Shown: positions 7,429 to 12,092 of the stretch, one piece after another | Position numbering within the stretch: position 1 is the stretch's first letter | How the letters are laid out: each line of letters starts with the position of its first letter | Assembly: GCA_009783055.1 (NCBI GenBank) | Contig: WRHW01000075.1 | Location: 1 to 12,092, forward strand | From: Holophagaceae bacterium | GTDB lineage: Bacteria; Acidobacteriota; Holophagae; Holophagales; Holophagaceae | DNA: 12,092 nucleotides | Reading direction: 5' to 3' | Notes under the pieces: model-generated | Seen by the model: only the letters and a program-made list of their open reading frames with translations | The model's database searches: none | What the model was told of the DNA's origin: nothing | Made by a program: the position numbers and the translations under genes

Positions 7429-8229
7429 TCAATTGGAGTCTATGGCCACGGCAACCTTTAGATTGAAAACGATGATGGTATTTTCCTTGATTAATACCGG
7501 GATAATGATGTCTGGAAAGCCTTGACTAGCCCCTGTGGGGGCAGTCGTTGTATGTTCGTCTGTTGTGATCGATTTGCTACCATTTGTAAGCGTCAGGTTT
7601 GTCAATTTTAGAGACATAGATGTGCCTCTGGTTTGGTTGCCTGGCACTACGTTTGAAACTACGCCTCTGACGGTAGCTCCCCGTTTTGCGACGGTTTTAC
7701 CACTCGCTACAATGTCTTCATCTAGGACTGCAGAAAACCCCTCGCCTGCCCTAACTCGATTTGTTGAAATGTCAGAAGTGGCTCGTACGAAAATCGAAGT
7801 TCCCTGTGCCAATGTAATGCTGGGGGGTGCAGGTGTGTTAATGTTTTGACTATCGCCAGATGACTTCTTTTCTGTAGTGGTAGCCTTGACATCAGACGGA
7901 TTAATTGGTGCCCCAGTAGCTTGGGTACCCTGTCCCTCATTAACGACTTTTTTGCCGGTTGATTTCCAGGCTAGGTAACCTCCGATTATGCAAACAGCCA
8001 AGATTGAGGCAATAGCGATACCTATCTTTTTGTTTGTTGATTTCTTGGTTGTTTCTATGGGTGAGACTGAAGCCACAAGTGCAGTAGTGCTATAGCCTAC
8101 GCTGGAGCTATCATCACTGGGGTTAGCTGGCATTCGAATTATTGTGTCGCAGTATTCGCAGGTAATCTTTTTATTGTCGTCACATACGAATTGTTCTCCG
8201 CCACATTTTGGACATTTCTCAGTACTCAC
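7429..8229 (-). CDS. Zinc-ribbon / single-TM / extracytoplasmic beta-domain protein (possible NfeD-like partner of the SPFH protein)
   Basis: The N-terminal segment 'CPKCGG-x12-CEYCD' is a CxxC...CxxC ribbon. One TM helix follows ('IGIAIASILAVCIIGGYLAW'), then an S/T/P-rich linker and a ~120-aa beta-rich C-terminal domain. GTG start at 8227-8229 sits 9 nt after SD 'GGAGG' and 22 nt downstream of the previous gene. Confidence 0.6.
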   Translation of the reverse strand: MSTEKCPKCGGEQFVCDDNKKITCEYCDTIIRMPANPSDDSSSVGYSTTALVASVSPIETTKKSTNKKIGIAIASILAVCIIGGYLAWKSTGKKVVNEGQGTQATGAPINPSDVKATTTEKKSSGDSQNINTPAPPSITLAQGTSIFVRATSDISTNRVRAGEGFSAVLDEDIVASGKTVAKRGATVRGVVSNVVPGNQTRGTSMSLKLTNLTLTNGSKSITTDEHTTTAPTGASQGFPDIIIPVLIKENTIIVFNLKVAVAIDSN

Positions 8230-8251: not shown

Positions 8252-8953
8252 TTATTGTGGTCGCCTCAGTAGGCGGCACTTATTATTCCTTTCAGTAAGT
8301 AATAAAGAAAGTTCGTCTGCTATTTTTCCGATATTTTCCCCATTTGAGGTCACAGCCTGCTTTAGGGAGGCAAATAACTTTTCCATTGCCGTTTCTAGGT
8401 CGGCTAAATCAGCGATACTTATTGGGTCGCTATAACGGACATCCTCCGATAGTTTTTCAACTTTATTTTTTAACACACCATCTGAAATGCGCGGTACCAG
8501 CGATTTCAAATCGACATAGAGGTGATTGATAAACCTTGATTCTGTTACGCTTTTTGTATCTATCTGTTCAATTATCTCGCGCGACCAATCTGCAAAAATA
8601 ATAGCTATCGTGGCATAGGCGAGGACAAGTATGCATGGGATAACTGCAACCCACGCGGGAAGATTAACCACAAGAGAAATAAGCATTATTGTTGCACAAA
8701 TGGCCAATTCAGCTAATAGACAGCGAAAGGCAATAATTACTATTGGGACACCCAAGAAGGCGCGTTTTAGGTTATCGGCTTTGCGAAAAGCAATGGTGTC
8801 AGCGATTAATTGAGCAATTATTGTTAGGACTGAAAAGCCGTAGGCGACCCAAAATGCCCCATTTTTGCGAAATGGTATTACAAAAACCAGTATATTGAAA
8901 ACAATAAAGATAATGGCTAATACTAAACTTCGGCGATTTCTGTATTTTATCAT
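8252..8953 (-). CDS. Integral membrane protein (4 predicted TM helices) with C-terminal cytoplasmic helical domain
   Basis: The 233-aa ORF has four hydrophobic segments in its first ~125 aa and a charged helical tail. Its ATG overlaps the stop of the upstream SPFH gene (ATGA at 8950-8953), which indicates translational coupling. It is preceded by SD 'AAGAAGGG'. Confidence 0.6.
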   Translation of the reverse strand: MIKYRNRRSLVLAIIFIVFNILVFVIPFRKNGAFWVAYGFSVLTIIAQLIADTIAFRKADNLKRAFLGVPIVIIAFRCLLAELAICATIMLISLVVNLPAWVAVIPCILVLAYATIAIIFADWSREIIEQIDTKSVTESRFINHLYVDLKSLVPRISDGVLKNKVEKLSEDVRYSDPISIADLADLETAMEKLFASLKQAVTSNGENIGKIADELSLLLTERNNKCRLLRRPQ

Positions 8954-10824
8954 CCTGTCCCTTCTTTCCGAGTTCCACAGTTATCGCAGAAATTTCCGAC
9001 AATGTTTTTGTTGCCGCATTTACAGTCCCAAGAGGTGGCTTTTTGTGACCCGCAATTTGAGCAGAAATTTTTTGCATTGCCCATTTGCCCGCAGGCACAA
9101 TTCCATGTTTCTGGTGGTGTTGGCTTTTTTCCACCACAATCGGAGCAAAAATTACCCTGAATCCCTTTTTGCCCACAAGCACAGTCCCATAAACCGCCTG
9201 ACAAATTATCGGAGGGAGAAATCGCAGGATTTACTGCGTTCCCAACCATTTTGCCAATATCCGAGGAAGCACCCATCATTGGAGAGAGTGCATCCTTTGT
9301 AAGTCCTATCACTCCGCCAAGGGCACCCAATGTTATTCCAAGGCCTGCGACATCTCCGATGGCTGATCCCATTCCACCGCCGCCACTACCTTCTTTAACG
9401 ATGCCTCCCTTCATGGCTTCCAATCCGATTTGACGTTGCGTTTCCTGGCTGTACGAATATTCTTTCATTTTCATTTCGCGGGCTTCGGCTTCTGCCTGCA
9501 TTAAGTGAGCATCTGCGTCTGCCTGTTTTTCTAAGCGCGTTTTATCTGCTGTTCCACCGGCAACTATTCTTGTAGTATCTGCATTCATCTGAGCTTCGAT
9601 AAGTTTTACCTGTGCTTGAGCGCGCGCAACCTCTGCCTCGGCTTCCAACTCCGCTTTTCTTACCTCCATTGCACGGACTTTTTCAAACTGGGCGGTGTGC
9701 GCTTCTAAAATCTTTTGTAGATTCCCTTTATTATCTGTTGTATCTATGGCCTCAAGATAAAACTCAGATAGGGTCAGGCCATATTCTTCCAGGTCTTTAT
9801 TGAGTCGTATTTGTAACGCACCCGACAATTCATCAAGGTTTTCGTCAATTTCTAGTATGTTGATCTGATTTTCTTTAATGGTTTTTGCCAAATGGGTTTT
9901 TACCCGCGTCATTACCATGGAACGGAAGTAACCCTTAAACTCTTTTGCCCCCTCCCCGTCTTGACGAAGGTCAGACCATATCAACTTATTTTCGGTACCC
10001 ACCAGCTTTAATATCAGTTTCCGTGAATCGCAAACACGCATGTTATATGCGCCACGTGCCCCAATATCCAATGGGAGGCGAGTTGTTGGTTCTAAAAACC
10101 TTACCCTGCTATCAGTGCCCCACTTTATTCCCATTTGCGTTGTGAGGTTTACAAAGTATATTTCTGCATGAAACATCCCCGATGGTTCCACCAAGGAATT
10201 GTAGACATCATTGATCAAAGGGACGCTTTGCGTTTCTAATGTATGTCGCCCAGCGGGAAATAATTCCCTTGCCTGGCCATTGCGAAAGAAAACTGCCTCC
10301 TGGGATTCGTGGACAATTAGCTGTGAACCAATGTTAAAGTCTTCAACCGGATGCTTCCATACAAAAGTATCGTTTTGGCCTTCATACTTAATTACGCTTG
10401 CAAGCCCCGTTTTGGCAATCTTTTTTAGTTGCACTTCTTTTAATACATCAATATTGCCCAATCCGCAGACTGGGCAGGTGTATTCTAATACGTCATCTTT
10501 TACGCTCAGGCTACAGCTACATTGAGGGCAGGCAAAGCTAAGCATGCGAGCAAACATTTGCCCCGTTGTAGTGAGTTTCTTTTTACAAACTGGACACTTT
10601 GCTTTGTCACCTTGACGCTGGTCATAGGCCACCGATTCCCCGCATTCAGAACATTTTAGCGTTACAAGGCTTGCAGAATCGATCACTATGTCACGCTCAC
10701 ATGCGGGGCATTTGAATTTTTTCTTGGCTAAAAAATTAATACCAAATATGCCCTTGGGTGCTTCTACATGCGTATTGCAATGGGGACAATTGAGTGCAAA
10801 TTTTGGTGTTACAAAATCAAGCAT
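8950..10824 (-). CDS. SPFH / Band_7_1 (YdjI-like flotillin-related) protein fused to an N-terminal triple zinc-ribbon array and C-terminal triple tandem zinc ribbons
   Basis: The core 'VIKYEGQNDTFVWKHPVEDFNIGSQLIVHESQEAVFFRNGQARELFPAGRHTLETQSVPL' matches the Band_7_1 / SPFH-like family signature (B. subtilis YdjI type). The N-terminus has three CxxC-x15-25-CxxC ribbons. An Ala/Glu/Gln-rich coiled coil (~res 385-470) is followed by a Gly-rich GxxxG segment. The C-terminus has three 'W[DN]C[AK]CG-x6-NFCxxCG' repeats. SD 'GAAGG' lies upstream of the ATG at 10822-10824. Confidence 0.8.
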   Translation of the reverse strand: MLDFVTPKFALNCPHCNTHVEAPKGIFGINFLAKKKFKCPACERDIVIDSASLVTLKCSECGESVAYDQRQGDKAKCPVCKKKLTTTGQMFARMLSFACPQCSCSLSVKDDVLEYTCPVCGLGNIDVLKEVQLKKIAKTGLASVIKYEGQNDTFVWKHPVEDFNIGSQLIVHESQEAVFFRNGQARELFPAGRHTLETQSVPLINDVYNSLVEPSGMFHAEIYFVNLTTQMGIKWGTDSRVRFLEPTTRLPLDIGARGAYNMRVCDSRKLILKLVGTENKLIWSDLRQDGEGAKEFKGYFRSMVMTRVKTHLAKTIKENQINILEIDENLDELSGALQIRLNKDLEEYGLTLSEFYLEAIDTTDNKGNLQKILEAHTAQFEKVRAMEVRKAELEAEAEVARAQAQVKLIEAQMNADTTRIVAGGTADKTRLEKQADADAHLMQAEAEAREMKMKEYSYSQETQRQIGLEAMKGGIVKEGSGGGGMGSAIGDVAGLGITLGALGGVIGLTKDALSPMMGASSDIGKMVGNAVNPAISPSDNLSGGLWDCACGQKGIQGNFCSDCGGKKPTPPETWNCACGQMGNAKNFCSNCGSQKATSWDCKCGNKNIVGNFCDNCGTRKEGTG

Positions 10825-10975
10825 TGAAAACCTTCATATGTCGACATTAAGCCGTTGTTACGAATTGTCTTGCCTAAGAATTTGGTTTGCTCCGATTTGG
10901 ATTCCAACGACACAGCCACTATGCAAAAAAATAGGTGGCATTGGTGTGGTGGGGTGATTTCAAAATCCGCGATGC

Positions 10976-11066: not shown

Positions 11067-12062
11067 TCACTTCTTTGTCATCTTCTCCCACATGCTTCTT
11101 CCTTCCGTTTCATCAATTTGCCTTACCGACATCCCTGGCACTATTTCTAGTCTTTCATTTTTTTTCTTGCCACGGTCGTTTACGACTTTTTCCTTTTGGA
11201 CATTGGCTATTTTGCCTGTAGAGGTAGATGCCGCAACGGTTTCGATAACGATGTAGGCAATTACAGTTTCTTCAACGGCCACGGTCTCACCAGTTATGGG
11301 ATGAACGATGGGATCGTCCTCTCTGATGACCATGTAACGCTGGCCTTTTATAACTCCATCATTGCTACCCATATCAATCATTGCCATATTGTCCTTAACC
11401 TGTACCACTGTGGCTTCTGTGCCAATTCCCATTTTTCTCACAACCCTGGCAATAGCCTCGCGCGTCAATTTTGAGTACAGAGCAGTGTTTACGTAGCGAT
11501 CTCTGACAGGATCCCATGAACTTACAGTGGAGCTTTCCACCCCTTCTGCTTGCTCAATAAAGGCAATTTTGCCATTTTTTACGTCAAGCATTTTTATGTT
11601 TATTAGAACCGATGTTTTTCTGGTCAACGAGCTAGCCGTGTTTCTCGATGAATTTTTGCTCAAGGCATTAGAAAGAAGCGAAGTCGAAGTTTCGCGAGCT
11701 TCTTCGCTAACTTCCAGCACTTTGCCCATCACTACATAATCAACGCCGGCTATTTTGCCCATCTCCGCGGCGACATCATCCGTAATGCCTGCCATACCTT
11801 GCGCTACCTGCTCTATCACCTTATTCATCTGTGCTTGTTCAACGAGCTCATATTTTTTACTTTTCAACAGTTCGTAGCTTAGTATGTCCACAAGGCCCCT
11901 GCTAAAGGCACTATCGCTGACCTGCGAGTTGTTTTCGAAGGCTACCACGCCAATGCGTTCTTTGGGGCGCTCCTGGGCGACCGCGGAAGGCGAAAAGCCA
12001 AAAACGGCGAGTGATAGTACTGCCAGTTTTAGACTGAGCAAGTGTCTGAGGTTGAGATTCAT
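11067..12062 (-). CDS. CsgG-family-like periplasmic protein (curli-assembly/transport-component-like N-domain), SPI-type signal peptide
   Basis: The segment 'KERIGVVAFENNS...GLVDILSYELLKSKKYELVEQAQMNKVIEQ...GVDYVVMGKV' follows the CsgG-family pattern (xxIAVlpFen...L...L.ksgrfxvveR..l..vl.Eq...GAdyvv.G.v). The signal peptide 'MNLNLRHLLSLKLAVLSLAVFGFSPSAVA|QE' has no lipobox Cys. I chose the second in-frame ATG (12060-12062) because it is preceded by purine-rich 'AAAGGAAAGAAG'. The ORF-track start at 12077 has no SD. The window ends 15 nt further on. Confidence 0.6.
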   Translation of the reverse strand: MNLNLRHLLSLKLAVLSLAVFGFSPSAVAQERPKERIGVVAFENNSQVSDSAFSRGLVDILSYELLKSKKYELVEQAQMNKVIEQVAQGMAGITDDVAAEMGKIAGVDYVVMGKVLEVSEEARETSTSLLSNALSKNSSRNTASSLTRKTSVLINIKMLDVKNGKIAFIEQAEGVESSTVSSWDPVRDRYVNTALYSKLTREAIARVVRKMGIGTEATVVQVKDNMAMIDMGSNDGVIKGQRYMVIREDDPIVHPITGETVAVEETVIAYIVIETVAASTSTGKIANVQKEKVVNDRGKKKNERLEIVPGMSVRQIDETEGRSMWEKMTKK

Positions 12063-12092
12063 CTTCTTTCCTTTCATGGAATTAGGTGGTTA

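Follow-up and report, generated by a model that had tools for sequence, protein, structure and literature searches.

A Conserved SPFH Protein with Predicted Zinc Ribbons at Both Ends Is Part of a Three-gene Unit in a Holophagaceae Contig

Introduction

Is a 624-amino acid open reading frame (ORF) in which an SPFH core lies between two sets of Cys-rich motifs one real gene, and what might its product do? The question is raised by a 12,092-nucleotide stretch of DNA, referred to as the window, which is the entire contig WRHW01000075.1 of a metagenome-assembled genome of a Holophagaceae bacterium (Acidobacteriota). SPFH proteins such as flotillin, HflK/C and stomatin are understood to form cages at membranes, within which client proteins are enclosed and regulated. 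The initial annotation of the window listed three N-terminal zinc ribbons (ZnR), an SPFH core, a coiled coil, a glycine zipper and three C-terminal zinc ribbons in the protein, here termed SPFH-ZnR, and all of these elements are seen in the translation. The ORF is a real gene without interruption, and its product is a scaffold protein of the flotillin-like (SPFH) type that has predicted zinc-binding modules at both ends. The conserved unit to which it belongs is a triad composed of SPFH-ZnR, a translationally coupled partner with four transmembrane (TM) helices and a variable ZnR-headed protein (Table 1).

Results

Integrity and Domain Structure of SPFH-ZnR

The identical 624-amino acid protein is recorded as P0001 and is also present in independent assemblies. 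A protein search with SPFH-ZnR returns 6,527 matches, and the best 120 of these all cover 94-99% of the query with 44-57% identity, have lengths of 575-719 amino acids and carry five or six N-terminal CxxC knuckles. In a survey of 183 relatives with a recognizable core, 171 have six N-terminal Cys knuckles in one continuous ORF. An alignment of 34 homologues (44-60% identity) is unbroken across residues 120-150 and has no conserved stop/start near residue 135, which the initial annotation had named as the mark of a frameshift merging two genes. In one relative, L073 (7995-9890; Bacterium 1xD42-67), an in-frame stop (…SEKI*HDGLASVIKYEG…) precisely at the array/SPFH junction splits the gene into a 123-amino acid ribbon protein and a 490-amino acid SPFH protein, and could be explained by a nonsense mutation, by a site of read-through or by an error in sequencing. 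The window protein contains 26 Cys residues, with 25 located in the ribbon motif regions (the 24 of six Cys4 sets and Cys-104 inside ribbon 3) and Cys-265 being the sole outlier. The AlphaFold2 (AF2) model calculated from the 34-sequence alignment has a mean predicted local distance difference test (pLDDT) score of 68.7. A sequence search of the PDB with SPFH-ZnR gives insignificant ribbon matches only (E at least 0.13).

Eleven of the 12 N-terminal Cys residues are invariant in the 34 homologues and Cys-42 is at least 90% conserved, which is far above chance. When scanned alone, residues 1-135 exceed the gathering scores of several zinc-ribbon Pfam families (DUF7560, 36 bits; Zn_ribbon_FGT1_2, 32.5 bits), and the knuckles are modeled as β-hairpins with pLDDT values of 65-88. 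The N-terminal Cys pairs, whose ribbon fold had been put forward as a point to check, thus behave in a ribbon-like manner, and the Cys4 sets are probably zinc ribbons by sequence pattern, conservation, Pfam families and modeled hairpins, with zinc binding predicted. Natural variants mark the boundary of the array, with two relatives (L081 and L077) lacking it and starting straight at ...ALASVIKYEG and a third (L072) having two ribbons.

The core scores 107 bits with Band_7_1 (PF13421), for which the cut-off is 24, and the match (E 1.4e-30) extends over positions 9-197 of the 211 in the profile. In a BLASTP comparison, residues 8-215 of YdjI pair with residues 141-361 of SPFH-ZnR at 23% identity (E 2e-17); the ends of the YdjI sequence used were checked against primers given in PMC8581546. 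The description of the core as YdjI-like is borne out by these two results. In the AF2 model the core is of moderate confidence (pLDDT 50-90) and is followed by a long helix that terminates in an invariant KGYTYxQETxRQxGLEA block in the 34-homologue alignment. In Foldseek alignments spanning 266-348 columns, the SPFH fold together with the long helix is matched by stomatin, prohibitin, HflK/C, flotillin and QmcA with a probability of 1.00 and E values between 2e-7 and 1e-5. The coiled coil of the initial annotation is therefore present as a long helical region but is not a separate module; on the model it is the counterpart of the wall helix that SPFH proteins forming cages possess. SPFH-ZnR has no TM helix of its own.

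The glycine zipper, GDxAGLGxxLGAxGGVxG, covers residues ~486-508 (window 9301-9369) of the tether and is real and conserved, with Leu-495, Gly-496, Gly-503 and Val-505 invariant in the 34 homologues and the motif found in 160 relatives. The mean Kyte-Doolittle hydropathy of the segment is 1.27 in these relatives and 1.49 in the window protein, which is borderline, and the segment is unstructured in the AF2 model. It may form a membrane dip, a plug at the cage apex or a plain linker. The C-terminal motif W-x-C-x-C-G-x7-NFC-xx-CG forms three small modules in the model (pLDDT 70-87); among the 183 relatives the number of C-terminal ribbons ranges from two to seven with a mode of four, and in homologues they are assigned to zinc_ribbon_2/3 and DZR. 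The three tandem copies stand at the protein level, but the ~72-bp DNA tandem repeat reported with them does not, because Tandem Repeats Finder gives nothing at score 30 over 8800-10900 and a repeat search gives short pairs only (12-24 nt, 70-83% identical). The three 57-nt DNA cores of the repeats are 60-67% identical and are spaced by 84 and 75 nt, not 72. RanBP2/NZF zinc fingers (W-x-C-x(2,4)-C-x3-N-x6-C-x2-C) share the initial Trp, the four Cys and a similar total span with the C-terminal repeats, which differ in having a C-x-C first knuckle; with this knuckle and no zf-RanBP match even at E ≤ 10, a RanBP2/NZF identity was rejected.

The Conserved Triad

The ORFs of 83 loci were clustered in the gene-neighborhood analysis, and in 74 of them a partner of ~230 amino acids lies immediately downstream of the SPFH gene with gaps of mostly -32 to +26 nt. 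The partner motifs RYSDPVS and ERN are invariant and fall within the cytoplasmic bundle. The AF2 model of the partner, built on an 8-row alignment (a word-index search gave eight partner homologues), is all-helical with four TM helices and a three-helix bundle (pLDDT 71.5). No Pfam match to the partner is present at E ≤ 0.1, with the cytoplasmic half giving none of note at E ≤ 10, and comparison with PDB folds gives no match (best E about 1).

The third gene sits in the slot occupied by ZnR-headed proteins at related loci, and genes of this kind are present in 62 of the 83. Its ribbon matches a profile made from the N-terminal ZnR heads of neighboring (TIR) proteins in related loci with an E value of 3e-4. 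The C-terminal Ser/Thr-rich domain of about 170 amino acids is probably extracytoplasmic and has no Pfam match. The triad spans positions 10824 to 7429 of the minus strand with no terminator-like sites between the three genes on that strand, and array-less distant relatives on viral/prophage contigs have the same order of SPFH-ZnR, four-TM partner and ZnR-headed protein. A description of the SPFH-ZnR subfamily was not found in the literature on PF13421/Band_7_1/COG4260; the N-terminal array, the triad and a linkage to TIR proteins in Clostridia are new content, and the subfamily is undescribed in the searchable literature.

Specificity of the N-terminal Array

The initial annotation took the N-terminal ribbons for a YdjG-like module fused to a YdjI-like SPFH protein and read the fusion as a "Rosetta stone" for the joint action of the two. 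According to Ravi et al. (PMC11237479), YdjG combines two zinc ribbons and an NTF2-like domain with a TM segment, YdjH a TPM domain with a low-complexity region, and YdjI (the gene is printed "YdjL" in the text) a band-7 domain with a C-terminal zinc ribbon. An exhaustive HMMER search with residues 1-135 over 1.84 billion representatives yields 163 clusters. Those inspected are same-family proteins of about 550-680 amino acids, longer versions of about 1,000-1,300 amino acids mostly with a detectable Band_7_1 match, and fragments reading into the SPFH start; no free-standing or YdjG-type carrier of the array is among the inspected matches. The longer proteins P0209, P0212, P0215, P0232 and P0276 (~1,000-1,200 amino acids) have the same array, mostly a Band_7_1 match, several hundred added residues and then a C-terminal ribbon. 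The search also matches P0210, a DnaJ-domain protein with repeated double ribbons.

BLASTP of the N-terminal array against the YdjG sequence used here aligns the CxxC knuckles only (E at least 0.12). Both ribbons of this YdjG sequence match the ZnR-head profile (33.8 bits in total), as does the third gene of the window, whereas the N terminus of SPFH-ZnR gives no match at E ≤ 1. The YdjG-like element is thus the separate gene at 7429..8229 and not the fused array, although this gene has one ZnR head, one TM helix and no recognizable NTF2-like domain. With the array found only on Band_7_1 proteins or their fragments, the triple ribbon is, as far as sequence searches indicate, specific to the SPFH-ZnR family. 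The proposed fusion is not upheld, and the Rosetta stone reading is unsupported because no free-standing or YdjG-borne counterpart of the array was found.

Distribution and Origin

In a species-level scan with one genome per species, relatives occur in at least 591 species-representative genomes. The taxonomy, taken from the best 80, is nearly all gut and rumen Clostridia (Lachnospiraceae, Oscillospiraceae, Ruminococcus, Acutalibacteraceae and Erysipelotrichales), and cultured isolates with relatives include Ruminococcus sp. FC2018, Blautia sp. HCP3S3_C4 and Pseudoflavonifractor capillosus. YdjI/SamI is itself described as SPFH, a region of low complexity and a C-terminal zinc finger (PMC8581546; PMC11237479), and from this published architecture and the YdjI alignment the core, tether and C-terminal ribbon of the window protein follow a known arrangement. 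The architecture, which had been called unusual, is conserved and widespread and largely follows the YdjI pattern.

Identity to the nearest relatives of the Holophagaceae copy is no more than 52-57%, and these relatives belong to loci of the Clostridial type, which suggests that this copy was acquired horizontally. A scan of 2.9 million viral contigs gives seven loci, and a viral origin was rejected as a general explanation on this count. In the IMG/VR contigs L088-L091, which are classified as viral, genes for serine recombinase and lysozyme-like proteins adjoin an array-less SPFH-ZnR gene that is accompanied by a four-TM partner and by a coiled-coil protein with a ZnR head, and these loci may be prophage cargo.

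TIR Neighbors in Clostridia

Proteins with the arrangement ZnR-TPR-TIR_2 are found near the SPFH/four-TM pair in 67 of the 83 loci, on the same strand and with one to five paralogues per locus; their tails vary, being an RCC1 propeller, ankyrin, TM or coiled coil. Such arrays accompany the pair in loci L007-L086, for example at L018:2927-15212, L019:3223-14691 and L024:66-11531. The closest relatives of the window protein also have TIR neighbors. Among 112 TIR proteins, a ZnR head is present in 87 and a W-x-x-E motif in 89, and we take this motif to resemble the catalytic-Glu motif of plant and bacterial TIRs. A small ribbon-helix-helix (RHH) gene lies upstream of the cluster in 29 of the 83 loci (for example L015:7673-7987, L078:979-1296 and L081:7477-7947; consensus …ISMRLPKDMLADIDKIAKETGRTRNEI…) and is absent from the 242-nt upstream gap of the window. 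For the comparison of the array with TIR neighbors, three array-less loci are usable, and one of the three (L081) has a TIR neighbor. A survey of 147 neighbors scanned against Pfam and PADLOC is heterogeneous, with resolvases, integrases and scattered matches to defense families (AbiLi, ThsA-STALD, LeoBC and IetA), and is treated as a hint only since it has no background control.

Other Genes of the Contig

The triad is flanked by envelope genes, listed in Table 1, which are typical of diderms and therefore consistent with the Holophagaceae assignment. The genes at 272-3901 bear no relation to SPFH-ZnR.

Table 1. Features of the window and their positions
Feature	Residues	Position	Strand	Remarks
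SPFH-ZnR coding sequence (ZnR3-SPFH-coiled coil-Gly-zipper-ZnR3)	624	8950..10824	minus	ORF list and translation, stop codon included; full-length homologues, 44-57% identity, 94-99% coverage
N-terminal triple zinc-ribbon array (predicted)	1-135	10420..10824	minus	Cys4 sets 13/16/39/42, 58/61/77/80 and 99/102/117/120; CxxC pairs start at 13/39, 58/77 and 99/117
SPFH / Band_7_1 core	161-364	9733..10344	minus	Pfam PF13421; YdjI homology begins at residue 141
Long helical (coiled-coil) region	368-473	9406..9723	minus	AF2 helices 368-422, 426-453 and 458-473
Gly-rich tether	474-545	9190..9405	minus	AF2 pLDDT below 50; coil 472-543 of low confidence
Three C-terminal Cys4 ribbons (predicted)	546-564, 574-592, 599-617	8974..9189	minus	Motif scan; copies start at 546, 574 and 599
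Partner gene, four TM helices and cytoplasmic helical bundle	233	8252..8953	minus	Start overlaps SPFH stop by 4 nt (ATGA)
Third gene, N-terminal zinc-ribbon head (KCPKCGG...CEYC), one central TM, probably extracytoplasmic domain	266	7429..8229	minus	22-nt gap after partner
CsgG/LpoB-like lipoprotein		11067-12077	minus	Triad flank
Outer membrane protein (OMP) β-barrel		6792-7370	minus	Triad flank
Lipoprotein with Listeria-Bacteroides/InlB B-repeats, C-terminal part unassigned	813	4249-6690	minus	Triad flank
TM2-domain protein		3614-3901	minus	
Metallo-β-lactamase-fold protein		2654-3319		
DUF2911 protein		1699-2646	minus	
Small radical-SAM protein		1073-1726	minus	Presumably 7-carboxy-7-deazaguanine-synthase-like
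HD-domain protein		272-937	minus	

Discussion

A Proposed Scaffold for ZnR-headed Clients

The domain composition of SPFH-ZnR, its conservation, its gene linkage and its fold similarity are observed. As a whole they are best explained, with a confidence somewhat above even, by SPFH-ZnR being a membrane-anchored YdjI-type (Band_7_1) scaffold that holds or gates ZnR-headed clients. SPFH-ZnR would be produced together with the translationally coupled partner and, since it has no TM helix, would be anchored to the cytoplasmic face of the inner membrane by this co-translated four-TM protein. Oligomerization through the SPFH domains and the wall helix, as in other SPFH proteins, would give a ring or cage. 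The six Cys4 ribbons of each subunit, predicted to bind six zinc ions, may serve as protein-docking modules for the partner and/or a ZnR-headed client. As the N-terminal three ribbons take the usual position of the SPFH membrane anchor they are expected at the membrane-proximal rim, with the C-terminal three carried on the ~70-residue Gly-rich tether at the far end. The ribbons would hold or gate a ZnR-headed client of the same operon, namely the bitopic ZnR-TM-periplasmic-domain protein (7429..8229) in Holophagaceae and the ZnR-TPR-TIR proteins in Clostridia. The logic would parallel Bacillus subtilis YdjG/YdjH/YdjI (SamGHI), in which the SPFH protein restrains a membrane complex, with published genetics placing SamI as the restraint on SamGH.

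Several points weigh against a scaffold of this kind. Oligomerization, anchoring by the partner, client binding through the ribbons and a regulatory role are steps that we infer. The array-less L081 still has a TIR/ZnR-head neighbor, so the array is unnecessary for that linkage. A 58%-identical partner homologue (L097:1957-2658) occurs without an SPFH gene, its neighbors being a toxin-antitoxin pair of the VapB/PIN type and a gene for a purine DNA glycosylase. With 18 bits, the third gene matches the ZnR-head profile modestly, and a search of 5.8 billion proteins gives no homologue of this gene except its own record. The hydrophobicity of the glycine zipper is sufficient for it to be, possibly, a membrane-inserting element, and the topology would then change. 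Genes for PspA (PspA_IM30), TPM-domain and TIR proteins are absent among the window ORFs scanned, leaving no pointer to a pathway.

Alternative Explanations

The alternative that survives best, although we consider it rather unlikely, places the triad at the center of a mobile module for conflict or anti-phage defense in which the SPFH/four-TM pair senses membrane perturbation and controls ZnR-headed effectors, these being TIR NADase-like in Clostridia, with the Holophagaceae copy a horizontally acquired variant in which the effector is replaced by the ZnR-TM-periplasmic protein. It is consistent with the TIR proteins that adjoin the pair in 67 of 83 loci, even in the closest relatives, with the W-x-x-E motif in 89 of 112 of them and with the RHH regulator gene upstream in 29 loci. 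The variable flanks with resolvases, integrases and scattered defense-family matches, the array-less copies beside serine recombinases on viral/prophage contigs and the Clostridial-type sequences nearest to the Acidobacteria copy point the same way. However, a TIR or other recognizable effector domain is absent from the window. PADLOC-DB v2 gives no significant match for SPFH-ZnR, the partner (CARF_TM at an insignificant E of 0.006) or the third gene, and the TIR proteins give weak TIR-level matches only, with no defense system assigned. An enrichment of defense genes is not established by a survey without background control, and literature searches on SPFH with TIR and anti-phage functions, or with defense and zinc ribbons, gave nothing on the SPFH-ZnR subfamily and no paper that links SPFH to TIR.

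A tentative proposal of the same kind, which we regard as possible if doubtful, takes SPFH-ZnR and its partner as the sensor/scaffold of an undescribed and horizontally mobile system. An SPFH cage would sequester ZnR-headed effectors at the membrane and release or activate them on a membrane insult such as phage entry, the effectors being the ZnR-TPR-TIR arrays in gut Clostridia and the ZnR-TM-periplasmic protein in the window. If true, it would be the first case of an immune or conflict system gated by an SPFH protein.

It is improbable that SPFH-ZnR is the local orthologue of the PspA-YdjGHI (SamGHI) envelope-stress module, recruiting a PspA/ESCRT-III protein whose gene lies elsewhere in the genome. 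The YdjI-like core, tether and C-terminal ribbon (PMC11237479) and an operon mixing a membrane protein, a ZnR-head/TM protein and an SPFH protein, as in ydjG-ydjH-ydjI, are what such an orthologue would have. Strict orthology nevertheless fails on pspA, which is missing from the window and from the 25 commonest Pfam families of the neighbor sample, on the TPM domain that defines YdjH and is not present in the partner, and on the NTF2-like domain of YdjG, which is not recognizable in the third gene, the topology of the latter also being different. The gene order is also different, and YdjI has no N-terminal array or long coiled coil.

Very little weight is given to the ribbons binding nucleic acid in a TFIIB- or RanBP2-type manner, with the protein tethering DNA or RNA at the membrane. 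Popp et al. (bioRxiv 10.1101/2021.02.15.431232) point out that TF_Zn_Ribbon domains are known to bind DNA, and the ribbons have weak Pfam similarity to transcription-factor and nucleic acid-associated ribbon families, but these matches reflect the generic ribbon fold alone. The triad contains no fused or conserved nucleic-acid enzyme or helix-turn-helix domain, the RHH gene is small, separate and absent from the window, and the known role of SPFH proteins is that of scaffolds at membranes. An artefact of assembly or frameshift in which a small gene for a zinc-ribbon protein was joined with an SPFH gene, for which the in-frame stop of L073 is the one precedent, is refuted by the homologue survey (the same protein in independent assemblies, continuity in 171 of 183 relatives and the unbroken alignment at residues 120-150), and its probability is practically nil.

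Implications

For annotation, the 624-amino acid ORF is no fusion artefact and splitting it is unwarranted. The subfamily has three predicted zinc ribbons in place of the usual membrane anchor and two to seven more on a tether, and the scaffold reading would make it a sequence-level handle on how soluble YdjI-type SPFH members reach the membrane and their clients. If clients are recruited by ribbon-ribbon or ribbon-partner docking, the same logic may explain B. subtilis YdjG/YdjI, and an unrecognized membrane-gated TIR system would then be indicated by the tight linkage to multicopy TIR proteins that hundreds of gut Clostridia show.

Comparison with Known Systems

TIR-based immune systems such as Thoeris (ThsB) resemble the Clostridial relatives in that the latter are flanked by TIR_2 arrays with the W-x-x-E motif. 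They differ in that the window has no TIR gene, the TIR proteins fall outside the PADLOC systems and an SLOG/SIR2 partner is not conserved.

The predicted SPFH domain and wall helix superpose with those of the cage-forming SPFH complexes (HflK/C-FtsH, QmcA-YbbJ, flotillin, stomatin and prohibitin), and the pairing of an SPFH gene with that of a small membrane protein in one operon is shared with SPFH-NfeD. The cage-forming proteins have their own N-terminal TM helix or hairpin where the window protein has three predicted zinc ribbons, and a cage is for SPFH-ZnR a prediction drawn from this likeness. The partner is neither an NfeD protein nor a protease, with no Pfam match to the NfeD OB-fold and an all-helical model.

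The closest known counterparts are YdjI and YdjG. YdjI is soluble, and its recruitment to the membrane depends on YdjG and YdjH (PMC8581546; bioRxiv 10.64898/2026.02.06.704340). It shares with SPFH-ZnR the Band_7_1 core without a TM helix, a Gly/Met-rich stretch of low complexity and, at the C terminus, a Cys4 ribbon that ends in NFCxxCG, and its operon also holds a membrane protein and a ZnR-head/TM protein, although it additionally carries pspA and the TPM-domain YdjH. The third gene resembles YdjG in having a ZnR head followed by a TM anchor and in being encoded beside the SPFH protein, whereas YdjG has two ribbons, the NTF2-like domain and a C-terminal TM segment (PMC11237479) and the third gene a single ribbon, a TM helix in the center and a domain that is probably extracytoplasmic. 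With 323 amino acids, 23% identity in the core and a single C-terminal ribbon, YdjI is the simpler protein, and what SPFH-ZnR has in addition is the triple ribbon at its N terminus, its long helix and more than one copy of the C-terminal ribbon.

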